A stretch of DNA of 64,000 bases from Spirochaetia bacterium (lineage in GTDB: Bacteria > Spirochaetota > Spirochaetia > CADAEX01). Both the position numbers and the translations under genes were made by a program. Location: assembly GCA_963662265.2 (NCBI GenBank), contig CAXXHA010000010.1, positions 288,001-352,000 on the forward strand, written 5' to 3'. This document shows positions 2,235 to 59,388 of this stretch, piece after piece; positions within the stretch are counted from its first letter, which is position 1, and each line of letters starts with the position of its first letter. Below the pieces are notes generated by a model. The model ran no database searches. It saw nothing but the letters and a program-made list of their open reading frames with translations, and was not told the DNA's origin.

Positions 2235-3107
2235 TCAGTTTTTAATTTCAAGAAATATCCTGGCCTTGTCCATCTCCTCTTTTACATAGTCATTTATTTT
2301 TTCAGGATATGTTTCATCAACTCCGGCTTCCTTATAAACAGAGGCAATCGGAACATCCGGACATCTGTTTCCGGAATAATAACAGCCGAAAAGATTTGCA
2401 AAGTAATCTGCCAGAATTATAGTATAAGTCAGTTTTTTATATTTTTCATCCACAGAATTAATATCATGATGTGAAACAATAACATTTTTAACAGGATCTC
2501 CAAGATTCCAGGATTCAGCAATCATCAGCCCTGTTTCTGTGTGGTCCATTCCGAAAAACTCTTTTTCAGCTTCTGCTGTAGAGCCGTAAAAGCCACCTGC
2601 CCGTTTTTCAACCAGCTCTGTATATTCTCCGGGAAAACATGATATCAGCGGTATTTTTCCTATATCATGAAGAAGTCCGTTGATGAAGTATTCCTCCTGC
2701 TCGGCTCTGCTGATTCCTGTGTCTGATGCAATTTTTCTGGCAATAATCCCGGTGCAGAGGGAATGTTCCCAGAATTTATCGCTGTTCATTTTCACAAAAT
2801 TCTTTTCCCCGGACATAAGCCCCATGACTGCGGAGCTGAGCGCGAGGTTTTTTACAGTATTCATTCCAAGCATGATAATTGCACGGACAAGAGAAGTAAC
2901 TTTATCGGAAAGGCCGTAATAGGCAGAATTAATAAGTTTCATGACCTTGCCCATAAGCACAGGGTCAAGGCTTATAACTTTATAAAGATCTACAGGCGAT
3001 GTTTTTGGATTATCACAGATTTCCTGAACCTTGGAAACAGTAACAGGCAGACTCGGCATATTTTTGATGTAGCTGGAGACAACTTTCAGCCGATTACCCT
3101 TCATCAT
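2235..3107 (-). CDS. HDOD domain signal transduction protein
   Basis: MPSLP...DPVLMGKVMKLINSAYYG...FWEHS...GLLHDIGKI. Confidence 0.9.
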   Translation of the reverse strand: MMKGNRLKVVSSYIKNMPSLPVTVSKVQEICDNPKTSPVDLYKVISLDPVLMGKVMKLINSAYYGLSDKVTSLVRAIIMLGMNTVKNLALSSAVMGLMSGEKNFVKMNSDKFWEHSLCTGIIARKIASDTGISRAEQEEYFINGLLHDIGKIPLISCFPGEYTELVEKRAGGFYGSTAEAEKEFFGMDHTETGLMIAESWNLGDPVKNVIVSHHDINSVDEKYKKLTYTIILADYFANLFGCYYSGNRCPDVPIASVYKEAGVDETYPEKINDYVKEEMDKARIFLEIKN

Positions 3108-7050: not shown

Positions 7051-8877
7051 ATGAAAGATACAAAAGAAATTAGACAATATCTTACTCAGCTTGTAAAGGA
7101 CCTGCCAGACAGTCCCGGTGTTTATCTAATGAAAGACGCCGACAATAATATTATATACATAGGAAAAGCAAAAAACCTTAAAAACAGAGTTAAATCCTAT
7201 TTCTCAGGGACAAAAGAGCTTAAAACAACTTACCTTGTCAAAAGAATTGCAGATATTGAAATAATTACAACATCAACAGAATATGAAGCCCTTATACTTG
7301 AAAACAATCTCATAAAAAAGTGGAAGCCGAGATATAACATTGATCTAAAAGACGGGAAATCATTTCCTGTAATAAAAATCACAAAAGAGAAATTTCCATG
7401 CATATACAGGACCAGGAGAATTTTAAACGACGGGTCATCCTATTACGGCCCGTTTCCCGGGATAAGAAGCATTGACCTTTACCTGGAACTTGTTAACAGG
7501 AGATATAGGATAAGGAAATGCAGGGGAAAACTAAAAAAAAGGGATGCCCCATGCCTCTACTATCATATCGGACAGTGCTCTTCCCCCTGTACAGGAGCTG
7601 CAGACCCTGAAGAATACCGCAGGGAAATCCATGAAGTTGAAAAAATCCTTACAGGCGAGACAGGACATCTTATCGGGGAATTCAAATCCAGGATGGAGGA
7701 ATACTCTGCCGCCCTGGAATTTGAAAAGGCTGCCGAATACAGGGATCTTATAAATTCGATCAACAGTATCAATGAGCAGCAGCTTGTAGAGGATTTTGAC
7801 AGTGAAAAAAGAGATTATATTACATATACAGGGGAAGACAGCTACAGCGCCTTTACTGTGCTGCAGATGAGAAACGGAAAGCTTTCAGGAAAATCCGCCT
7901 ACCTGTCGGAGAATCCTGAAAGCAGCGATGTTGCCATGACATCCTTCATCATCCAGTATTACAGCAGGTATTTTGATGAGAATTTTCATTCAAAAGAGGG
8001 GCTGCCTGAAAGAATCACTGTAAACATAATGCCTGAATCAGAAATGGTGGAAAAATATTTTTCAGAAAAAAGCATAAAACTGATACCGCAGCTTCCGGAA
8101 GACAGGAGAGATTCATCGCTCATCAGGATGGGAGAGGAAAACGGAAAACTTGAACTTCTCAGAAAGAAAAAAGCGGCCGAATACAAGGTTCCGCTTAAGG
8201 AACTGATGAAAGAACTGTCACTTCCTGCCCTCCCGAGAAGAATAGAAGGTTTTGATATAGCCCAGCTGGGAGGAAAACACACTGTTGCATCAATGGTAAG
8301 TTTCCTGAACGGTAAACCTGATAAAACAGAATACCGGTATTTCCATATCAAATCTCTTCCTGAAAACAGCATCGATGATTACGGGTCTATCAGGGAGGCA
8401 GTTGCCAGGAGATATACCAGAGTATTGAATGAAAATCTCAGAAAGCCTGACCTGATACTTATAGACGGGGGAAAGGGGCAGGTAGCTGCCGCTAAAGGGA
8501 TACTCGAGGCAATAGGACTAGGGAACATACCTCTCGCAGGGCTTGCGAAGCAGCACGAATGGATATATCTGCCGGGGCAAAAAGATCCTGTAATACTGGA
8601 AGAAACATCACCTGCCAGAAACCTTCTCCAGTATGTGAGGGATGAGGCGCACCGTTTCGCAACATCCTTCAACAAGAATCTGAGAAAGAAAGATGTGAAA
8701 TTTTCAGTACTTGAAAGCATTCCCGGGATAGGGGCTGCCAGGAGTGTAAAAATAATGAATGAGTTCAAGAGCCTTGAAAACATCAGAAACGCAGGCCCCT
8801 ATGAGATTAAGGACAGGACAGGAATACCGCTTACAGCAGCAGAGAAAATAATAAATTATCTAAACGGAAAGAAGTAG
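7051..8877 (+). CDS. uvrC: Excinuclease ABC subunit C
   Basis: GIY-YIG (PGVYLMK..IYIGKAKNL), RIEGFDI, PDLILIDGGKGQ, RDEAHRFA, HhH; ATG at 7051 preferred over TTG 7033. Confidence 0.97.
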   Translation: MKDTKEIRQYLTQLVKDLPDSPGVYLMKDADNNIIYIGKAKNLKNRVKSYFSGTKELKTTYLVKRIADIEIITTSTEYEALILENNLIKKWKPRYNIDLKDGKSFPVIKITKEKFPCIYRTRRILNDGSSYYGPFPGIRSIDLYLELVNRRYRIRKCRGKLKKRDAPCLYYHIGQCSSPCTGAADPEEYRREIHEVEKILTGETGHLIGEFKSRMEEYSAALEFEKAAEYRDLINSINSINEQQLVEDFDSEKRDYITYTGEDSYSAFTVLQMRNGKLSGKSAYLSENPESSDVAMTSFIIQYYSRYFDENFHSKEGLPERITVNIMPESEMVEKYFSEKSIKLIPQLPEDRRDSSLIRMGEENGKLELLRKKKAAEYKVPLKELMKELSLPALPRRIEGFDIAQLGGKHTVASMVSFLNGKPDKTEYRYFHIKSLPENSIDDYGSIREAVARRYTRVLNENLRKPDLILIDGGKGQVAAAKGILEAIGLGNIPLAGLAKQHEWIYLPGQKDPVILEETSPARNLLQYVRDEAHRFATSFNKNLRKKDVKFSVLESIPGIGAARSVKIMNEFKSLENIRNAGPYEIKDRTGIPLTAAEKIINYLNGKK

Positions 8878-30277: not shown

Positions 30278-33200
30278 TCAGCATATAACAGTGTCTCTTC
30301 CATGCTCTTTGGCAATATAGAGTTTTCTGTCAACATCAATAATCATTTTATCTGCGTAATCATAGTCTGTGTTATCTGTTGAGACAATTCCAATACTTGC
30401 TGTAAGGAATTTAGAAACAGCGCTGCCTGAATGCACAATTTCAGCAGATACAAGCTTCTCCCTTATTTTTTCCGCAACAACAGATGCCCCTTCCAGATCT
30501 GTATCAAGAAGTAGCAGAATAAACTCCTCCCCGCCATATCTGAAAACAGTGTCTGTTTTCCTGGAAACTGCATCGCAGAGAATATCTGCGAATTTCTTCA
30601 GACACTTATCTCCCGCAACATGCCCGTAGGTATCGTTATAAGCCTTGAAAAAATCTATATCTGCCATTAAAAGGGAAACCGGCATACCCAGCCCTTTTAT
30701 GAAGGTGCCAGCCGTTCTCAATAGTTTCCCGGAAGTGATGCCTGTTGTAAACTCCTGTAAGGGGATCAATCCTTATAAGACGGTCAAGTTCGCAGTTTGC
30801 ATCAATAAGTTCATTTTTCAGGCGGTTCTCTTCCCTGAGCCTTTTTACACTTTCCTTTCCCCTCACAATCATTATTATTGAATAAAAAACAGTGATTAAA
30901 GCTGTCAAATAAAGAATATAGGCATAAAAGCTTCTGTAAAAAGGAGGCGATATTACAATATCCATATATGGTTCATCACTGCTTATTTTGCCGCTGCTGT
31001 TTGAACCTTTAACCCTGAAAGAATATCTGCCGGGAGGAATATTGGTATAATTTGCATAATTATTATTGCCTGATGAAACCCAATTCATTATCAAATCCCT
31101 CAAGTATATATTCATACCTGTTATTAAGCGGGGATGTATAATCGAGAGCAGCAAAATTAAAAGAAAATGAGTTGTCGCTCCAGGGAAGCTCAATTACACC
31201 GGGATTAAAGACAGTATGTCCCCTGTCGAAAACATATTCCTTCCTGAAAACTTTAAAGCTGCTTATAACAACACGCGGATCATAATTCCGAATAAAATAA
31301 GACTCTGTATCGATTTTATAGATAACTCCGGAAGCAGATATGTAGAAGTTGCCGTCTCCATCCTTCTCGATATCCCCTTTTAGCTCCTGATCATCCATGC
31401 CAAACTGATACGACAGGGTAAAGATCCTGTTCTCCCTCCTGTCTATAACTGAAAGCCCCTTGTTTGTCGTAACTACTATATTTCCCCGTCTGTCTTCCGA
31501 TATTCCGGTAATATTATTGCTCTGAAGACCATTTTCTTTTGTAAAATGATGAAAGTTTTCAGATTCATAATTATACCGGTTCAATCCTCCGCCTGAAGTT
31601 CCTAACCACATATCCCCGGCTGAATCTTTAAATATCTTGATTATCACATTATTGGAAATACCCTCACCCCTGTCATGATCATACAGAAAAGACCTTATTT
31701 TACCGGTTTCAATATCATATATATTCAGCCCGAAATTTGTTCCTATCCAGATATTGCCGAATTTATCATCATTTATATCAAAAACCATCTGGTCGGTAAT
31801 TCTGAAACCATCCTCTCCTTCAGGATAATAATGAACAGTGCTGCCCGATTTAACATCCCAGAGATAAACACCGTTAAGGTATGAACCAATCCAGAACCTT
31901 CCCTGTTTATCCTCAAAAATTGCATATATTATATCATTTTCCGGACTTCCGGCAGACTCATTGCCTGTCACATCAACAATCTCTTCTCCATCAAAAGAAT
32001 AATGCCTGAATCCCTTTCCAGGAATATGCCGGTTAATCCCGCTGTTTGTGCCTATCCAGAGATTATCACGGCTGTCCAGAAATAATTCATTGACAGAATC
32101 ATTGCTCAGGGAAAAAGGATTATTCCTGTCATGAGAAAACCTTGATAATTTATCCTTTTTACTTTCATACCTGTAAAGACCGCTGGAATAAGTACCTATC
32201 CAGAGCAGTCCCTCATCATCAAACAACAAATCTTTCATCCGTTCATCAGGTATTGAAATACTATCTCCGCTGATACTGTAGAGAAACCTGCAATCCTTTA
32301 CATCGGGATTATACTTATTGACTCCTCCACCGTTAGTCCCGATCCAGATAAGACCGGAATCATCCTCCAGAAAGGAATATCCTATATTGTTGGAAATAGA
32401 ATACTTATTACTTTTATCAGCTTTCAGATGAATGTAATCAGCTTTAAGAAGAGAAGTGAAATCCTCAAAATAATAAATTCCCCCACCCCAGATACCGGCC
32501 CAGAAATGTCCTCTGCTGTCTTTTTTCAGGAAATAAAACCTGTTGTCGGGGAATTTAAGAGTCGTTACAGTCATTTCAGACTCATTAAATACAGAAATAC
32601 CGCCATCCCAGGAAGCAATAAGAAACCTGTTTTTATCAATTTTTTCAATATCCATTATATATTCTGAAGGAAATTCAATATCAGAACTGCTGCTTGTTCT
32701 GAAAAACCTCCCTTCATGAAAAAATGCAAGCCCGCCGTATGTGGCAACCCAGATCCTGCCGTCATCCCCGGCATATATATCCCTTACAGAGTTGTCAGGC
32801 AGCGAAGATTCATCCCCCGCTTTGTTTACATACTCTGTAATATCTCCTTTTTCAGGGTCAAGAGAGAGAAGACCGGAAAGAGTACCGATCCATATCCGGC
32901 CGGTTCTGTCCTTCGCTATGCTGACAATAACCCTGGAAAATTTCTTCCTGCTTTTACTCATATCAGACAGGGAATAATGCCTTATTTTTCCTGATACAGG
33001 ATCCAGGGCAGACAGGCCGCCGTATGTGCCTATCCAGATAATATCTTTATCACTGTCATAATACATGGTCTGAACCAGGTTGTGCTGAAGGGAATTGTTC
33101 CTGAAAGGAAGATGCTCGTAAAGGATAAAATCCTTGCCATCATACCGGTTAAGCCCGTCCTGGGTTCCGAACCATATAAATCCCCTGTTATCCTGAACCA

Positions 33201-33360
33201 TTGAAGAGATGCTGTTTCCGGAAAGCCCGTTTTCTGAAGTCAGATGCTCAAAACGGAAGCTTTCAGAAGACGCGAATACGGAAAATAAAAATGCAAAGGA
33301 AAACAGAAAGATACATTTTCTAATGAGGTGTGAACTGATGTTTGTTGAGCAGATTTTCAT
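30278..33360 (-). CDS. Periplasmic beta-propeller (Reg_prop) + Y_Y_Y + TM + GGDEF diguanylate cyclase, split by two +1 indels
   Basis: Repeated D..G.(I/L)W(I/F)GT propeller motifs; YTNIPPGRYSFRVKG (Y_Y_Y); DPLTGVYNR; DIDFFKAYNDTYGH..RYGGEEF; frame breaks at ~31082 and ~30693. Confidence 0.88.
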
Positions 33361-50727: not shown

Positions 50728-51375
50728 TTATTTATCAGGAAAATAAATATTAACACAGTCGGGACATATTGTATGGGTGAATTTTGAATCAGCTTTTTTC
50801 TCAACATATTTTTCCAGGGGCCACCATTTATTATTCTCATCCCTGATTCTTCTGCAGCCGGAACAGATAGGGAGAAGAGTTTCAAGAGTTTTAACCTTCT
50901 TTAAAAGTTCATTTTTTTCCCTTAATGCTTTCTTCAGCGCCCTGTTGGTTTCCTGCTGTTTCTGTTCAGCCTTTTTTCTCTTATCAATATTGCGTGTTAT
51001 TCCCACAATTTTAAGAACATTATCATTTTCCATGAAGAATTTGGCAGAAATTTCTATCCAGACAGTAGAACCATTTTTATGATAAAGCTCAACATCCAAT
51101 GAATAGGATTTATTTATTCCTGATTCCCAGTCCTTTTTCCCTTTTTTGAAAAGAATACTTAATTTTTCATATGATTCCGGCACAATATTTTTCCTGAGTT
51201 CACTGCCTATCAATTCCTGCTGTGTAAATCCCCGAAGTTTATATATATCGGGACTGATATAAAGATATTTCAGGGCAGAGGCATCAATTACCCACACTGC
51301 ATCGATGAATTTATCAGTCATTGAACGGTATTTATATTCAACAGAAGCAATCTTGCTTTCAATTTTCGAATTCAT
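50728..51375 (-). CDS. PAS domain protein with C-terminal Cys/His (CxxC...HxxCxxC) motif
   Basis: PAS/PAC (YISP..GF..ELIG..HKNGSTVW..GITRNI), coiled coil, LPICSGCRRIRD..W..E.Y..FTHTICPDC. Confidence 0.85.
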   Translation of the reverse strand: MNSKIESKIASVEYKYRSMTDKFIDAVWVIDASALKYLYISPDIYKLRGFTQQELIGSELRKNIVPESYEKLSILFKKGKKDWESGINKSYSLDVELYHKNGSTVWIEISAKFFMENDNVLKIVGITRNIDKRKKAEQKQQETNRALKKALREKNELLKKVKTLETLLPICSGCRRIRDENNKWWPLEKYVEKKADSKFTHTICPDCVNIYFPDK

Positions 51376-51541: not shown

Positions 51542-52663
51542 ATGCTTGTTAAAAAAATTCTTGCAGAAAAATCTGCCGGCTGCCTGGTCGGTGGAGCAAT
51601 TGGAGATGCACTCGGAAGAGTTGTTGAATTTGTCCCTGAAAATATCATACGCCTGAAATACGGAACCCGGGGAATTACAGAGCTTCATCTGTCTGGCGGA
51701 AAAGCAAGATTTACAGATGATACCCAGTTGAGCCTTTTCACAGCAGAGGGCCTTTTGAGAATGCATACCAGAAAAATAATGAAAAGAGTAAATCCGTCAT
51801 ATGAAGTGATGCTGAGATCATACCACAGATGGATAATTACCCAGAACGGCGGGATATTTACAGGGACAGGATCTATTTACAAGAATATGAACCAGAAGCA
51901 GATTGATGCTGTTCTTGATTCAGGATTCCTTGTCAACAAGGTGGAACTCAACAGGATGAGAGCTCCGGGGCGGACATGTATTAATGCACTCAGCAGCGGG
52001 GAAATGTTCAGCTTCAAAAATCCCCCAAACAGCAGCAAGGGCTGCGGTTCGGTGATGCGGGCAGCTCCGGCTGGTATTTATTTCCACCGGGAACCGGAAA
52101 AAGCCTTTATATCAGGGTGCAGGCTCGCAGTCCTGTCGCACGGCCATCCTACAGGGTATATAACAGCCGGCACTTTTTCCATGCTGATTGCGCTGATTAT
52201 CAGCAAAATACCTCTTATTAATGCTGTGAAAAAGACTATATCATACCTCAAGGCAGACTGCCTCAAGCTGGATTTTATCAATCCCGGAAACACATATGAA
52301 ACACAAAGAGCACTGGAGAATTCCCTTGCTCTTTATGAAAACCGCAACCCTGAAAAAATTTCATTTACATCTCTCGGGGAGGGCTGGACAGCAGAAGAAG
52401 CCCTGTCTATAGGGATTTTCTGCGCCCTTGTTAATCAGGAAAATTTTGAACAGGGGATAATCACCGCTGTAAACCACTCGGGTGACAGCGATTCAACAGG
52501 CAGTATCTGCGGAAATATTCTTGGAGCACTCAACGGACTGAACTGCATTCCCGAAAATTATAAAATGCAGATAGAACTTTATCCAATGATGTGTGAAATA
52601 GCGGAAGACCTGATATGCAGTGGAGTTACTGAAGATTTTCAGAAAAAATACCCAGGATGGTAG
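51542..52663 (+). CDS. ADP-ribosylglycohydrolase (DraG/ARH family)
   Basis: GGAIGDALG, FTDDTQ, SKGCGSVMR, SHGHP, NHSGDSDSTGSICG. Confidence 0.93.
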   Translation: MLVKKILAEKSAGCLVGGAIGDALGRVVEFVPENIIRLKYGTRGITELHLSGGKARFTDDTQLSLFTAEGLLRMHTRKIMKRVNPSYEVMLRSYHRWIITQNGGIFTGTGSIYKNMNQKQIDAVLDSGFLVNKVELNRMRAPGRTCINALSSGEMFSFKNPPNSSKGCGSVMRAAPAGIYFHREPEKAFISGCRLAVLSHGHPTGYITAGTFSMLIALIISKIPLINAVKKTISYLKADCLKLDFINPGNTYETQRALENSLALYENRNPEKISFTSLGEGWTAEEALSIGIFCALVNQENFEQGIITAVNHSGDSDSTGSICGNILGALNGLNCIPENYKMQIELYPMMCEIAEDLICSGVTEDFQKKYPGW

Positions 52664-52736: not shown

Positions 52737-53342
52737 TTATTCCTCCCCCGGAAGCTCTTCAAGAAGATCATCGGCACAGAGATCAAGCTCTACTTTCCAT
52801 TCCCCCAGACGCTTGTACCTTATTTCATCTGCCGAAGATGTAAGATCAGACCCCAGTTCCTGGTCAAAGTATCTTATTAGGAGCTGGTTCGGATATGCTT
52901 CGGGGCGGATTTTTCTCAGGATTTTCGCGGCAGTTTTTTCAGAACCGGTAATCATATAAAGATATCCGAGAGCAACAGCTGTTGACCGGGAAATACCCTG
53001 CCAGCAGTGTATCGTATAACCGGAAGCTTCGTTACTTGTCTTTTTAAAGAAAGAAATCATTTTTTTAACATCACTGCGGCGGGGAATTCTTTTGGGATGC
53101 ATATCATGTCGTAAATGTTTCCTGCATTCAACATCAAAAAAAGAGAGTCTCAATATTTTTTCAAAGGATTTTTTAAACAGCTCGGGGATCAGGCAGTCTT
53201 CCATTTTCGGATGAAAATAAAGATGGGGATTCCCGATTGATATGAGATGTGTATGGTGAAATTTTCCCGCAGATATATATTCCTCCAGTTCTCTCTGGCC
53301 GAATACCTGTATTTTGCCTGCAGCCTGTATGCTTTTTCCCAT
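52737..53342 (-). CDS. Protein tyrosine/dual-specificity phosphatase-like protein
   Basis: P-loop IHCWQGISRS (CX5R), LSFFDV, RPEAYPN. Confidence 0.88.
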   Translation of the reverse strand: MGKSIQAAGKIQVFGQRELEEYISAGKFHHTHLISIGNPHLYFHPKMEDCLIPELFKKSFEKILRLSFFDVECRKHLRHDMHPKRIPRRSDVKKMISFFKKTSNEASGYTIHCWQGISRSTAVALGYLYMITGSEKTAAKILRKIRPEAYPNQLLIRYFDQELGSDLTSSADEIRYKRLGEWKVELDLCADDLLEELPGEE

Positions 53343-53360
53343 AACAAGCCTTTAATATTG

Positions 53361-53534
53361 TTAAAAATACCGGCCAAGCAATTCCGGAGTAATGAAACCA
53401 AGCTTCACAGCAATCTGGCCGAATCTTAAATCAGGATGTTCTTTCTGATAATCAAGAATTATATGCACCTCATCATCTGTTATTGCGCCGAGCCGTACAA
53501 GAAGTTCCCCGAATCTTTCTGTTGAATCTTTCAT
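53361..53534 (-). CDS. 57-aa stand-alone MshEN-like (c-di-GMP-binding) protein
   Basis: Not in ORF track. MKDSTERFGELLVRLGAITDDEVHIILDYQKEHPDLRFGQIAVKLGFITPELLGRYF; AAGGA RBS. Confidence 0.8.
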   Translation of the reverse strand: MKDSTERFGELLVRLGAITDDEVHIILDYQKEHPDLRFGQIAVKLGFITPELLGRYF

Positions 53535-53672
53535 CTTTAAATATCCTTAACTTATATTATATATCTATTTCCGTTAACTGCAAATTCCAGCGGGAGAGTT
53601 ATTAAAAAAACTGGTGAAACAGCTGTATTATACAAATTTATTTAAAAATTGCAGATTCCCTGTCGTTAAATC

Positions 53673-53704
53673 AAAAAAAAGCCTGCAGATAACTCCTGCA
53701 GGCT
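53673..53704 (-). terminator. Intrinsic terminator
   Basis: AGCCTGCAG/CTGCAGGCT followed by U run on minus strand. Confidence 0.8.
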
Positions 53705-53724: not shown

Positions 53725-54336
53725 TTATGGAGAAGGTGCTGTTGTTACTTCACCCCTGAAATTGTCAATCTGGCTCTTGATAGAATCAAGCTTTGAAGAT
53801 ATTTCACTGTTTTTTGATTCAGTTTTTGCAATATCCTGTTTTGATTTTTCTATCTCCGCTTTATTTTTCTCAATCAGCCTTTCTCTTCTTGCACTGTCCC
53901 GGGTGAGAAAAGCAACTTCTTCCTTATCAGACTTTGTCTGGTCCTCAAGAAATTTCCTTTCTTCAGACAGAAGAAATACAACACTCACAAGTTCATCCCT
54001 GTACTGATCAAGCCGTTTCTTGGTAGCCCTGTCTTTGGATTCCCTGTAGAGGTTATTTAAATCAAGGTTTGTCTGTGTAGTATAATCAATATTTTCATTA
54101 ATTTTTTCTACTCTGGTTTCTGATTTTTGAATTCTGTCTTCGAGAAATGTTTTTCTTTCAGTATTGGCAGCAATTGTATCAGAATGATTCACATTTTCAG
54201 TTTCAAGAAAGGCTATCCGATTATTTGTCTTTTTTATGTCTACATAATTAAATTCTTCTGCTTCCTGTGCAAAGGCTGAAAATAATGAGCCGGCAAAAAG
54301 CATTATCATCAGTAAATAAATTGGTTTCAATTTCAT
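53725..54336 (-). CDS. Exported coiled-coil hypothetical protein (paralog A)
   Basis: Signal peptide AFA|QE; heptad-rich; GGAGG RBS. Confidence 0.8.
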   Translation of the reverse strand: MKLKPIYLLMIMLFAGSLFSAFAQEAEEFNYVDIKKTNNRIAFLETENVNHSDTIAANTERKTFLEDRIQKSETRVEKINENIDYTTQTNLDLNNLYRESKDRATKKRLDQYRDELVSVVFLLSEERKFLEDQTKSDKEEVAFLTRDSARRERLIEKNKAEIEKSKQDIAKTESKNSEISSKLDSIKSQIDNFRGEVTTAPSP

Positions 54337-54471: not shown

Positions 54472-55074
54472 CTAATTAACAGAAATCGGGTCAGTAGTTA
54501 CATTGCTTCTGTAATTATCAAGCTGATCCTTGATTGTATCGAGTGTAGTGGATATTTCACTGTTTTTTGATTCTGTTCTAGCAATATCCTGCTTCAAAGA
54601 AGAAATTTCTCCATTGTTTTTCTCAATCAGCCTCTCTCTTCTTGCAGAATCCTTTTCTATAAAAGCAACTTCTTCTTTATCAAGCTTAATCTGGTTGTTC
54701 AATTCTTTTAACTCAGATTTAAGCAGCCAGATCAGACTGACAATATCATCCCTGTAGACATCTATCTTTTCTTTTGTTTTTCTGTCCTGTGTTTCACTGT
54801 TAAGCCTGTTAACCTCAAGATTTTTCTGTTTTGCAAAATCAAGATTTTCATTTACCTGCGTAATTCTGTTTTCTGATTCTGTTATCCGGTTTTCGAGAAA
54901 TGCCTTTCTTTCTCCATTATCCGCTATTGAATCTTCATGGTTTTTATTTTCAGCTTCAAGAACTGATATCTGATTTTCTGCTTTCTTTATATCAACAAAA
55001 CGACCTGTTTCCTGTGCATAAGAAACAGAACAAAGTATTATTAATAAAATTAAAGAAAAGGATTTAAATTTCAT
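54472..55074 (-). CDS. Exported coiled-coil hypothetical protein (paralog B)
   Basis: Signal peptide SYA|QE; shares DKEEVAF..DSARRERLIEKN..KQDIA.TESKNSEIS with paralog A. Confidence 0.8.
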   Translation of the reverse strand: MKFKSFSLILLIILCSVSYAQETGRFVDIKKAENQISVLEAENKNHEDSIADNGERKAFLENRITESENRITQVNENLDFAKQKNLEVNRLNSETQDRKTKEKIDVYRDDIVSLIWLLKSELKELNNQIKLDKEEVAFIEKDSARRERLIEKNNGEISSLKQDIARTESKNSEISTTLDTIKDQLDNYRSNVTTDPISVN

Positions 55075-57063: not shown

Positions 57064-59388
57064 TCAGTTTTTTGCCAGAATTTCTTCAAAATCAGCAGAA
57101 GGAAGAGGCTTGCTGTAGAAAAACCCCTGATGATAGCGGCAGCCCAGCCCGGCGAGCTTTTCAGCCTGATCTTCATCCTCAACCCCCTCCGCAACAACTT
57201 GCATATTAAAATTGCCGGATATCGACAGGATAGCCTCCACAAGGGCAGAATCATTTTCATCATTTATAATATCCCTGATAAATGCCCGGTCTATTTTGAT
57301 GATATTCAGGGCAAGGTTTTTAAGATATGTAAGAGAGGAATATCCAGTACCGAAATCATCAAGAGCAAATGAAATATCCAGTTTTCTTAAATCAGACACA
57401 GTTCCTGCAGTTTTTTCAATATTTTCTATCAGAACATTTTCAGTAATTTCCAGAACAATCATCTCCGGCGGAATATTATATTTTTGTATATTATTCAGGA
57501 GCAGCTCCGAAAAGTTATCCTGTTTCAACTGGGTAACACTGATATTAATTGAAACATATTTTAACGGATAGCTGAATTTATTGTTCCACTCTTCAAGCTT
57601 TTTACAGACCTCTTCAATAATCCATTCACCCATGGGAAGAATTAAGCCAGTCTCCTCTGCAAGAGGAATAAAATCAGAAGGAGAGACAATTCCCATTTCA
57701 GGATGAAGCCACCTTATCAAGGCTTCGGCGCCAGCATATTTTTTTTCCTTAAAATCATAAATCGGCTGAAAATTAAGAACAAATTCCTTATTTTCTACAG
57801 CATGTCTGAGACTGCTTTCAAGCTTCATTCTCTTTTCTATAGAGACGTTCATCTCTTCATTAAAGTAATGGGTACAGCTTCTTCCGCTTCTTTTTGCCTC
57901 ATACATTGCTGTATCAGCATTTTTCAAAAGATCATCGATATTGAGATCATTACCGGAAAACAAGGAAATTCCAATACTTGTAGATGTGTAGAGCTTTTTT
58001 TCAACCATTTTATATGGCTGCGACAGCTTTTTATGTATTTTATCAGCTACAAAACTTGCAGATCTGATAGCCTCTTCTGTATTATTCTGCAGTCTCGGGA
58101 GGAGAACAATAAACTCATCTCCTCCGATACGGGAAACAGTATCTTCCGCCCGTATAATTGATTTTATCCGTTCTGCAGTTTCAATCAGAATTTTATCACC
58201 TACATGATGACCGAGAGTATCATTAATCACTTTGAAATTATCAAGATCAAGAAACAGAATTGCCCCCATACAACCAGTTCGCCGGGCCCTCGCCAGAGCA
58301 GAGCCGGTACGGTCTTTAAGCAGAAGCCGGTTGGGGAGACCTGTCAGCGAATCATGATAAGCAAGATGGCGGACTTTCTCCTCTATAAGCTGGTATTCTG
58401 TCCTGTCCTGAAGAATTCCCACTGCTCCTGTCAGAACACCGTTACGGTCATAAACGGGGGAACATTTCATTGCGATCCATTTTTTACTGCTTGATATAGT
58501 AGTATGATAATCACCTTCGTAGAATCCGGTCTCTTCGTTGACTGCATCCTGAAGAGCCTGGAGAATTCTTTTATCCCGGATACTATTCATATTGAAGTTA
58601 ATCATATTATCTATTGATGTTTCCACAATTGAGCAGAATTCTTCATTGCAGTCATAAATGACTAAATCCATGTCATAATAAAAAATCCCCACAGGTGCAT
58701 GTTTGAAAATTGTCCTGAATTTTTTCTCACTCGCAGTAAGTTCATCGGTTGTTTTCCTGCTTATCCATGCGTAATAAATATTTTCATAAATAATTTTATA
58801 AAATTTATTACCAATGCCTAATATCATAAAATAATAAATAAGGAGAAGAACTGCGGCTGATTTATAATATTCAGCATCCAAAAGAAAAAGCCTTGCCGTA
58901 AAGGGAATAACAAGAAAAGACAGAAAAAGAAAAACCTGTTTTAAATCACTTGCAAGGGTAACAGTACTACCGGTTCCTATTCCCAGAATACAGACAATAA
59001 TAAACATGTTTACAGAATAATCATCTGTAAGAAGAACAAAACCGGAAAATCCCCAGACAAAAGCGGAAAGCAGCATCATCAGGACAAACAGAGAATAAAA
59101 TGTTTTATGGTTTTTTTCTTTCTGCCTGTTGAACAAAACAGATATAAAGAATCTTGCCGAGGAAACTAAAAAGACAGAAGAATACCAGTAAATAAGCAGA
59201 CTTTTATCTACATGATTCCTCAAAATTAATACAAGAACAAAGGCTGTAAACAAATACATACCTGTGCTTAAAGGAACAACTTTAGAGAGGTATTTCAGTT
59301 TTTCTTTTTCAAGTAATTTATTATCAGGAATTTCGGGACCTGCATCACGTTTATCAAGGCTGATATTCAGTTTCTTTTTATTATTCAT
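57064..59388 (-). CDS. Membrane PAS-GGDEF-EAL protein
   Basis: Several TM segments, PAS, HDSLTGLPNR..RIGGDEF, AEALIRW, DDFGTGYSSL, AEGVE. Confidence 0.94.
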   Translation of the reverse strand: MNNKKKLNISLDKRDAGPEIPDNKLLEKEKLKYLSKVVPLSTGMYLFTAFVLVLILRNHVDKSLLIYWYSSVFLVSSARFFISVLFNRQKEKNHKTFYSLFVLMMLLSAFVWGFSGFVLLTDDYSVNMFIIVCILGIGTGSTVTLASDLKQVFLFLSFLVIPFTARLFLLDAEYYKSAAVLLLIYYFMILGIGNKFYKIIYENIYYAWISRKTTDELTASEKKFRTIFKHAPVGIFYYDMDLVIYDCNEEFCSIVETSIDNMINFNMNSIRDKRILQALQDAVNEETGFYEGDYHTTISSSKKWIAMKCSPVYDRNGVLTGAVGILQDRTEYQLIEEKVRHLAYHDSLTGLPNRLLLKDRTGSALARARRTGCMGAILFLDLDNFKVINDTLGHHVGDKILIETAERIKSIIRAEDTVSRIGGDEFIVLLPRLQNNTEEAIRSASFVADKIHKKLSQPYKMVEKKLYTSTSIGISLFSGNDLNIDDLLKNADTAMYEAKRSGRSCTHYFNEEMNVSIEKRMKLESSLRHAVENKEFVLNFQPIYDFKEKKYAGAEALIRWLHPEMGIVSPSDFIPLAEETGLILPMGEWIIEEVCKKLEEWNNKFSYPLKYVSINISVTQLKQDNFSELLLNNIQKYNIPPEMIVLEITENVLIENIEKTAGTVSDLRKLDISFALDDFGTGYSSLTYLKNLALNIIKIDRAFIRDIINDENDSALVEAILSISGNFNMQVVAEGVEDEDQAEKLAGLGCRYHQGFFYSKPLPSADFEEILAKN

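Follow-up and report, generated by a model that had tools for sequence, protein, structure and literature searches.

Does the 57-residue open reading frame (ORF) that ends just ahead of a phosphatase gene in a Spirochaetia bacterium encode a receptor for c-di-GMP (the cyclic dimer of guanosine monophosphate), and does this receptor govern the phosphatase? The ORF lies on the reverse strand of a 64,000-nucleotide stretch of contig CAXXHA010000010.1 (the window; all positions count from its first letter). We found that its product, hereafter the mini-protein, is the MshEN_N subdomain of MshE-type domains alone, without MshEN_C or an output domain, and that it is very probably a c-di-GMP receptor, judging by its family and its conserved residues. 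As a receptor, the mini-protein would have to act in trans because it carries no output domain. The explanation that we favour, with moderate confidence, is a free-standing c-di-GMP receptor acting in trans, with the phosphatase as one possible target at this locus and not part of an established system.

The family assignment is based on profile and structure comparisons. The NCBIfam model NF053729 ('c-di-GMP_motif', MshE-related, 53 positions; curated cutoff, 38 bits) matched residues 7–53 over model positions 1–46 with 42.6 bits (E 3.8e-11), and family members P0005, P0010 and P0011 scored 44.5, 50.4 and 42.1 bits, respectively. All 26 mini-proteins and relatives scanned matched this model, 17 of them above the cutoff. 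A profile of 11 sequences searched against the PDB recovered the N-termini of PilB (E 6.9e-6), PilF (1.5e-4) and MshE (5HTL; 7.3e-4), so that comparison of profile hidden Markov models bears out the MshEN assignment made in an initial annotation of this DNA. NCBIfam models of the EpsG tyrosine kinase (N-terminal part) and of an NfrB-like glycosyltransferase (MshEN region) matched more weakly. AlphaFold2 predicted four helices (residues 4–14, 20–32, 38–44 and 50–56) with a predicted local distance difference test (pLDDT) score of 90.8, and every one of the top ten PDB hits by Foldseek was an MshE or PilF GSPII domain (nine c-di-GMP-bound and one PilF apoprotein); 5HTL_B superposed on the mini-protein over 48 columns with a query TM-score (TMq) of 0.79 and a root-mean-square deviation of 0.7 Å. 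The Foldseek E-values are weak (0.15–0.94) because the query is tiny. Pfam gave no match to the mini-protein, and the model of the full MshEN domain (PF05157) no hit at E ≤ 1; the protein ends after helix 4, without the alpha/beta MshEN_C subdomain. According to the supplement of Wang 2016 (PMC5013675), the then-current Pfam model did not cover helices 1–3 of MshEN_N. Scanned against Pfam, 20 mini-proteins yielded no meaningful family, with weak FumaraseC_C (7/20) and DUF4388 (5/20) matches to the helical repeat, and tblastn of the mini-protein against plasmids found one weak match inside a traC gene.

The residues expected to contact the ligand are largely in place. Alignment with VcMshE puts R7/F8/G9 on R9/L10/G11, Q30 on Q32 and R37/F38/G39 on R38/L39/G40 and, by register, L53 and F57 on L54 and L58. 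No position of motif I is missing: it fits (R/K/L)hGxxhhxxGhhxxxxhxxxhxxQ as well as the relaxed motif of Wang 2016 in full, and departs from the strict motif solely by Phe for Leu at position 2. Over 20 stand-alone mini-proteins (38–81% identity to the window protein), G9, Q30, F38 and G39 are invariant and R7, G16, L45 and G46 nearly so; G9, Q30 and G39 are the counterparts of the VcMshE ligand contacts G11, Q32 and G40, and G16 and G46 those of the turn glycines of the four-helix bundle, G18 and G47. The hydrophobic triads F8/L53/F57 and F38/V23/L27 are retained. In VcMshE, G11L abolished c-di-GMP binding, and G40I, L10A, L58A and Q32A weakened it 72-, 36-, 10- and 9-fold (Wang 2016, Supplementary Table 1; PMC5013675); the isolated VcMshEN_N (residues 1–62/65) bound c-di-GMP with a dissociation constant (KD) of 0.35 μM (PMC5013675). 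Given the invariance of G9, Q30 and G39 and this mutagenesis, the predicted site is very likely retained, and we infer that binding is kept, although its affinity may be micromolar and not sub-micromolar.

Several features weigh against this reading. Motif II ends at position 21 of 24, and the final three residues, therefore including the equivalent of Gln61, are missing; Q61A cost VcMshE 11.8-fold in binding (PMC5013675). Position 2 of each motif has Phe where Leu is canonical, and the published MshEN binding data compared here include no tested binder with Phe at this position. The N-terminal patch is acidic (DSTE) where MshE has a basic patch, nine of the 26 sequences scanned (mini-proteins and relatives) fall under the NF053729 cutoff, and the neighbouring genes differ in each non-syntenic locus (below). 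The truncation of the second motif that the initial annotation suspected is real (the terminal Gln is absent and the model is covered over positions 1–46 of 53), so that its description of two tandem motifs holds for motif I but has to be qualified for motif II, which follows a spacer of six residues instead of the canonical five. The Arg at position 1 of motif II also varies in the close family (Lys in P0005, Leu in P0010 and P0011). This is not disqualifying, because the PilF GSPII-B domain, with Lys and Leu at motif position 1, has very high affinity; the position-1 Arg is dispensable and the consensus was extended to (R/K/L)LG (Neissner 2024). The DSTE stretch ahead of Arg7 (residues 3–6, 53517–53528) is invariant in the 11 close homologues and in the copies of two loci that lack the phosphatase (L002 and L003).

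The mini-protein is encoded by a genuine gene under strong purifying selection. Codon comparisons between the window copy and those of loci L001, L002 and L003 gave proportions of synonymous differences (pS) of 0.63–1.0, which is saturated, and of nonsynonymous differences (pN) of 0.12–0.27; the ratio of nonsynonymous to synonymous rates (dN/dS) was 0.08 against L001 and 0.16 against L002. All 11 candidate clusters found at E ≤ 1e-3 in a word-indexed search were homologues (56–69 residues, 70–100% identity), with 25 invariant columns among them. A chance ORF, or the residual N-terminus of a decayed GspE/PilB-type gene, would agree with the short length, the lack of a Pfam match and a frameshifted copy in locus L004; it does not agree with such dN/dS values at saturated synonymous sites, with a length of 57 residues shared by no fewer than 21 of the 120 family clusters listed, or with an ORF that has its own ribosome-binding site and no T2SSE remnant downstream. 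Purifying selection, conserved length and the ribosome-binding site refute this reading for practical purposes, and we give it next to no credence. The L004 copy (7992–8138, in a long-read metagenome-assembled genome (MAG)) is frameshifted after DSTERLG, either through decay to a pseudogene or through a homopolymer assembly error.

The family to which the mini-protein belongs—large, uncharacterised, mainly from Spirochaetota and made up of proteins of 57–75 residues—is of greater interest than this locus. An exhaustive search of 1.84 billion representatives with a first profile gave 2119 matches at E ≤ 1e-3 (104 at E ≤ 1e-10); the best 150 of these comprised 20 proteins of up to 100 residues, 62 of 101–300 residues and 68 longer ones. 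Two of the 20 short proteins look like fragments: P0190, which continues into NfrB/PilB-model sequence, and P0194, an EpsG N-terminus (6e-22). A profile of the 20 mini-proteins then recovered at least 1307 proteins (90%-identity clusters, 31–139 residues) from 3196 candidates. The 120 listed of these 1307 include 111 of at most 97 residues, at least 21 of exactly 57 residues and nine two-module forms of 129–131 residues; their source names are 'hypothetical protein' with one exception, none has a precomputed Pfam domain, and seven of the eight rows named by NCBI come from Spirochaet* MAGs. The nearest Atlas cluster, with 66 members in Spirochaetota and a length of 58 residues, bears the automatic name 'GspE N-terminal domain-containing'. 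The initial annotation had called the ORF hidden, which suits the 'hypothetical' naming of the listed homologues, but homologous ORFs have already been predicted publicly and one Atlas cluster carries the GspE name. Judged by titles and abstracts, a literature search found no work on single-module stand-alone MshEN_N mini-proteins.

There is one mini-protein copy per window or locus, and repeat-only relatives with 2–9 tandem MshEN_N modules are common in the best 150. The partners fused to MshEN_N in the 130 longer relatives were CheX/CheC (five cases: P0146, P0147, P0088, P0140 and P0175), T2SSE ATPase (four), Ser/Thr kinase (three) and histidine kinase-REC (two), with single cases of PilZ, GT2, FHA, CBS and sugar transferase. 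The PilZ case, P0105 (178 residues; PF07238, E 1.1e-8), joins two types of c-di-GMP-binding module. The Pfam family DUF2949 (PF11165, about 56 positions) matches MshEN_N repeats in P0165, P0160, P0111, P0159, P0169 and others; in P0165 the match (residues 18–67) overlaps the region matched by the mini-protein profile, and DUF2949 also gave an Atlas match of 0.88 to a cluster that is cyanobacterial. Possibly, DUF2949 represents stand-alone MshEN_N proteins of cyanobacteria; the 20 mini-proteins gave no direct match to it (0/20), a literature search found no publication on it, and we keep it as a lead only.

We then asked whether the mini-protein and the phosphatase form a conserved pair. A genome scan with the mini-protein alignment gave 144 pattern matches and five confirmed loci (L001–L005); L005 encodes a 553-residue multi-repeat Planctomycetota protein and is set apart, and pairing was counted over the four other spirochaete loci, L001–L004. 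By tblastn, the phosphatase occurs in L001 alone (79% identity), starting 21 nt past the mini-protein stop codon. L001 shares with the window the order coiled-coil lipoprotein, mini-protein, phosphatase, ADP-ribosylglycohydrolase and PAS protein; because it is syntenic over this whole neighbourhood, the window and L001 represent one evolutionary event. In L002 (mini-protein 72% identical) a divergent histidine kinase/sigma-54 regulator pair lies upstream and no phosphatase was found within 8 kb; in L003 (65% identical) a caspase-like gene follows downstream, by eye, and the fetched flanks contain no phosphatase; in L004 the upstream genes are, again by eye, PAS-type sensor genes, and there is no phosphatase. 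No common regulatory motif beyond AT-rich −10-like and ribosome-binding-site-like stretches emerged from the aligned upstream regions of the five loci.

Fusions tell the same story: none of the 53 homologues of the phosphatase contained an MshEN_N module (best E 0.84), and none of the 130 longer MshEN_N relatives a dual-specificity or protein tyrosine phosphatase domain. Matching of cluster tables by their longest contigs, an indirect measure, showed only the 3785768-base contig of L001 to be common to both proteins, and the mini-protein clusters on contigs of 768719, 3052020, 523863, 3931449 and 138515 bases had no counterpart among the 53 phosphatase clusters; only long contigs were used, two short-contig coincidences (1017 and 1087 bases) being about what chance would give. 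The mini-protein family, with its at least 1307 clusters, is far wider than the 53 phosphatase clusters. Predicting the complex of the phosphatase and the mini-protein with c-di-GMP returned a score of 0.00 (mark, 0.32), which weighs neither way. The initial annotation had proposed a dedicated two-gene system, to be sought as conserved pairs or fusions by tblastn, and this proposal found no support: one pairing in four other loci, in syntenic L001, and no fused form. The comparative evidence argues against a general coupling of mini-protein and phosphatase, and the pairing does not appear to be kept across independent lineages. The linkage is lineage-specific; the general partner of the family is therefore something else or variable, and without conserved pairing or fusion, control of the phosphatase in trans is a local possibility only.

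The phosphatase itself has its catalytic residues in place. It is a divergent branch of the Cys-based dual-specificity and tyrosine phosphatase (DSP/PTP) superfamily: the Pfam DSPc model scored 27.9 bits, below its gathering cutoff of 33.5, some homologues carry precomputed PF00782, and sequence matches in the PDB were weak (DUSP10, DUSP15). Homologues numbered 53 of 231 candidate clusters, several being named 'predicted protein tyrosine phosphatase', where 'tyrosine' is the prediction of the source. The residues D70, H112, C113, G116, S118, R119 and S120, forming the HCX5R(S/T) loop and an upstream Asp, are invariant in 41 aligned sequences, and the position of Asp70 relative to Cys113 suggests a catalytic role for it. 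With the AlphaFold2 model (pLDDT 91.7), Foldseek retrieved 122 PDB hits at E ≤ 1e-3, the best being DUSP15, DUSP10, Tk-PTP and DUSP22; the protein is a DUSP-fold Cys-based phosphatase with intact catalytic residues. Its look-alikes in the Atlas, DSPc/tyrosine-phosphatase-like clusters and phage clusters without a name, narrow this down no further, and a search of the phosphatase against phages gave no match. In three of the 53 homologues (P0020, P0021 and P0061), an N-terminal STAS domain is followed by a Cys-rich segment that by eye resembles a zinc ribbon; these fusions (anti-anti-sigma-type) hint that the phosphatase family works in partner-switching circuits.

A dedicated module, in which the c-di-GMP-loaded mini-protein binds and switches the adjacent phosphatase and so couples c-di-GMP to dephosphorylation, would account for the tight layout (gaps of 18 nt here and 21 nt in L001, with no internal terminator), for the terminator ahead of the pair and the convergent gene behind it, and for the intact catalytic residues. 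STAS fused to the N-terminus in 3/53 phosphatase homologues, the position that the mini-protein gene takes here, and MshEN_N fused to CheX/CheC phosphatase in 5/130 relatives and in Supplementary Table 4 of Wang 2016 point the same way, and a tyrosine phosphatase is known in one c-di-GMP circuit (TpbA–TpbB; PMC2691606). We nevertheless think such a module unlikely, given that the pairing recurs in one of four other loci and there by synteny, hence from a single origin, that mini-proteins 65–72% identical in L002 and L003 have no phosphatase in the fetched flanks, that the long-contig matching (indirect) yields L001 only, and that the 53 and 130 proteins include no fusion. The mini-protein might instead act as a sink or buffer: small and made in large amounts, it would set how much c-di-GMP is free, or the response threshold, with no specific partner. 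The broad family conserves only ligand-contact and fold-forming residues, with no additional common surface patch, neighbours vary by locus, and relatives of 2–9 MshEN_N modules and nothing else are common, with (MshEN_N)2 cce_1044 as a further repeat-only case. We doubt this too, as there is one copy per window or locus and the close family is invariant at the non-ligand residues D3, S4, T5, E6, R14, Y29, K31 and H33, which suggests a conserved interaction surface.

Nor does it seem probable that the protein is a diverged four-helix module that has lost c-di-GMP binding and serves another ligand (cyclic GMP–AMP, cGAMP) or protein interaction, like the XpsE N-domain. The truncated motif II without its terminal Gln, Phe for Leu in both motifs and the acidic N-terminus would suit such a role; degenerate non-binding MshEN domains exist (XpsE and PilB_3 of D. 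geothermalis) and MshEN binds cGAMP weakly (PMC5013675). However, G9, G39 and Q30, the hardest-hit positions in binding, are invariant over a divergent family, the triads F8/L53/F57 and F38/V23/L27 are kept, and several of these very positions are lost in XpsE (G11V, G40L, L54H and L58C; PMC5013675). The free-standing receptor acting in trans is left as our preferred reading. Of the free c-di-GMP adaptor or buffer controlling the phosphatase that the initial annotation envisaged, the stand-alone MshEN_N protein stands, whereas the dedicated switch of the phosphatase is not supported.

As a receptor acting in trans, the mini-protein would bind one c-di-GMP across both RFG motifs. The guanines would be read by the backbone amides after G9 and G39, with R7 and R37 stacked on one face of the bases and the triads F38/V23/L27 and F8/L53/F57 on the opposite face; hydrogen bonds would come from Q30, the second Gln being missing. 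Because no MshEN_C subdomain covers the ligand, the nucleotide-loaded face would be exposed for reading by another protein, and the mini-protein would serve as a c-di-GMP-dependent adaptor in trans in the manner of single-domain PilZ proteins. In this lineage, the phosphatase may be one target of the loaded mini-protein, a candidate because of the co-transcription layout, the STAS-fused homologues and the CheX-fusion precedent. The gene, its family and fold, the conserved ligand-contact residues and the operon-like layout are shown; ligand binding, the trans action and whatever influence the mini-protein may have on the phosphatase are conditional in this scheme. Free-standing MshEN_N mini-proteins could even be a third architectural class among c-di-GMP effectors, diffusible 'nucleotide-glue' adaptors whose half-exposed c-di-GMP would meet changing partners, here gating a cytoplasmic DUSP-fold phosphatase, an idea that we consider distinctly improbable. 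A bolder variant would make Ser4-Thr5, beside Arg7, a phospho-site through which the phosphatase would set c-di-GMP-binding competence; Ser4/Thr5 could be a modification site.

The features of the locus are collected in Table 1. The coordinates and the AAGGA ribosome-binding site that had been assigned to the 57-residue ORF (53534–53361) proved correct on direct reading, as did the 18-nt distance between its stop codon (ending at 53361) and the start of the CX5R phosphatase (ATG at 53342), and the terminator said to set it apart from the upstream coiled-coil gene was found as a hairpin (53704–53680). A search between the two ORFs found no terminator-like site, and because of this and the 18-nt gap the two genes are probably co-transcribed. 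For the promoter-like element, 8 sites of this grade were observed in the region against 6.2 expected.

Table 1. Features of the mini-protein and phosphatase genes (window positions).
Feature	Position	Strand	Remarks
Mini-protein gene	53361..53534	(-)	57-residue single-domain MshEN_N protein, stop codon included; start MKDSTERFGELLVRLG
Shine-Dalgarno AAGGA	53544..53548	(-)	9 nt 5' of the mini-protein ATG; direct sequence reading
Promoter-like TTTGCA-17-TATAAT	53556..53584	(-)	10/12 consensus matches; consensus resemblance only
Terminator-like hairpin	53680..53704	(-)	10-bp stem with 6 GC pairs, 5-nt loop, then TTTTTTTGAT (T-run)
Motif I, residues 7-30 (RFGELLVRLGAITDDEVHIILDYQ)	53445..53516	(-)	complete 24-residue c-di-GMP motif; alignment with MshE
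Motif II, residues 37-57 (RFGQIAVKLGFITPELLGRYF)	53364..53426	(-)	ends at motif position 21, without terminal Gln
Spacer, 18 nt	53343..53360	(-)	AAAGG at 53353-53349, 6 nt 5' of the phosphatase ATG, as phosphatase ribosome-binding site; no terminator
Phosphatase gene	52737..53342	(-)	201-residue DUSP-fold Cys-based phosphatase, stop codon included
P-loop HCWQGISRS, CX5R, residues 112-120	52983..53009	(-)	H112, C113, G116, S118, R119 and S120 invariant in 41 sequences
Asp70, candidate general acid	53133..53135	(-)	invariant in 41 sequences; 43 residues ahead of Cys113

Downstream, an ADP-ribosylglycohydrolase gene (51542–52663, (+); PF03747, E 1.8e-59) converges on the phosphatase gene, as in L001; with its end at 52663, the transcription unit probably consists of these two genes only. 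Beyond it lies a PAS protein gene (50728–51375, (-)), conserved in synteny with L001 (10133–10816), whose product has a Cys-rich tail (LPICSGCRRIRDE...HTICPDC); its Pfam matches at E ≤ 1e-5 were PAS families alone, with none on the tail. Directly upstream, two tandem paralogous genes (53725–54336 and 54472–55074, both (-)) encode coiled-coil proteins of about 200 residues with signal-peptide-like N-termini by eye and weak coiled-coil Pfam and NCBIfam matches only; each gene is trailed by a terminator-like hairpin, and L001 has a single copy (7265–7876). Scanned in full with Rfam at its gathering thresholds, the window gave six matches (signal recognition particle RNA and five tRNAs, at 29.1–30.1 kb) and no riboswitch around 52–54 kb.

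The window also bears on the supply of the ligand. The GGDEF (30278–30769) and GGDEF-EAL (57064–59388) genes named in the initial annotation are present, and they indicate that the organism makes c-di-GMP; the HD-GYP protein named with them was not confirmed in the window, the HD-type ORF at 2235–3107 (-) being HDOD (PF08668, E 5.5e-55). The GGDEF domain at 30278–30769 belongs to a Reg_prop/Y_Y_Y/GGDEF sensor (30278–33360, (-)) that appears to be spread over three overlapping ORFs in different frames (31063–33360, 30636–31193 and 30278–30769), suggesting two frameshifts, through either a pseudogene or an assembly error. A REC-domain ORF (3–596, (-)) crosses the window start, and its C-terminal part lies outside.

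In bacteria, c-di-GMP-making enzymes usually far outnumber the known receptors, and PilZ, MshEN and ComFB are given as the only widespread receptor families (PMC12448109). If the predicted binding is true, a natural protein made up of the 53-residue MshEN_N site alone would be smaller than any other protein receptor for c-di-GMP, and the at least 1307 clusters would add a large group of receptors so far overlooked, especially in Spirochaetota. Since the mini-proteins are short, they can be synthesised chemically, which makes binding and partner screens easy. The phosphatase link would matter only once shown by experiment, because the comparative data give it no support; if true, it would be a direct switch from c-di-GMP to dephosphorylation in this spirochaete lineage.

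Single-domain PilZ adaptors such as MapZ are small stand-alone c-di-GMP receptors that bind their targets in trans; they are our working model for the mini-protein, although their fold and binding mode are unrelated. In Pseudomonas aeruginosa, TpbA–TpbB likewise wires a tyrosine phosphatase into c-di-GMP signalling, but TpbA lies in the periplasm and acts upstream, where it reduces the making of c-di-GMP by way of a GGDEF protein, and its published description includes no paired receptor (PMC2691606). The EpsG-type chain-length-determinant tyrosine kinase (TIGR03029), whose first ~46 model residues the mini-protein matches (E 6.3e-7), also links MshEN_N to tyrosine phosphorylation, but as a fused kinase; no bacterial tyrosine kinase was found among the domain matches of the window in the neighbourhood of the mini-protein gene. 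The (MshEN_N)2-CheX protein of Geobacter lovleyi, Glov_2742, joins MshEN_N to a phosphatase and suggests that c-di-GMP feeds into dephosphorylation (PMC5013675); the CheX cases are covalent fusions to a phosphatase of CheY-P aspartyl-phosphate, whereas here separate genes encode the mini-protein and a Cys-based DUSP-fold enzyme. The architecture table of Wang 2016 lists (MshEN_N)2 cce_1044, REC-MshEN_N Bd2402, MshEN_N-AAA_31 EpsG and (MshEN_N)2-CheX, and no single-module stand-alone MshEN_N protein (PMC5013675). The MshEN_N-only cce_1044 of Cyanothece sp. ATCC 51142 is the published 'receptor-only' precedent (PMC5013675); it is a cyanobacterial protein of two modules and 145 residues, absent from the binding measurements of Supplementary Table 6 in that source, whereas the mini-protein is one 57-residue module. 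With the MshEN_N of VcMshE (PDB 5HTL; Wang 2016, PMC5013675), a subdomain that binds alone, the mini-protein shares the fold and the two-motif site. It differs in having no Gln61 equivalent, Phe at position 2, a spacer of six residues instead of five and an acidic N-terminus, and in being this subdomain as a whole natural protein, free of MshEN_C and ATPase.

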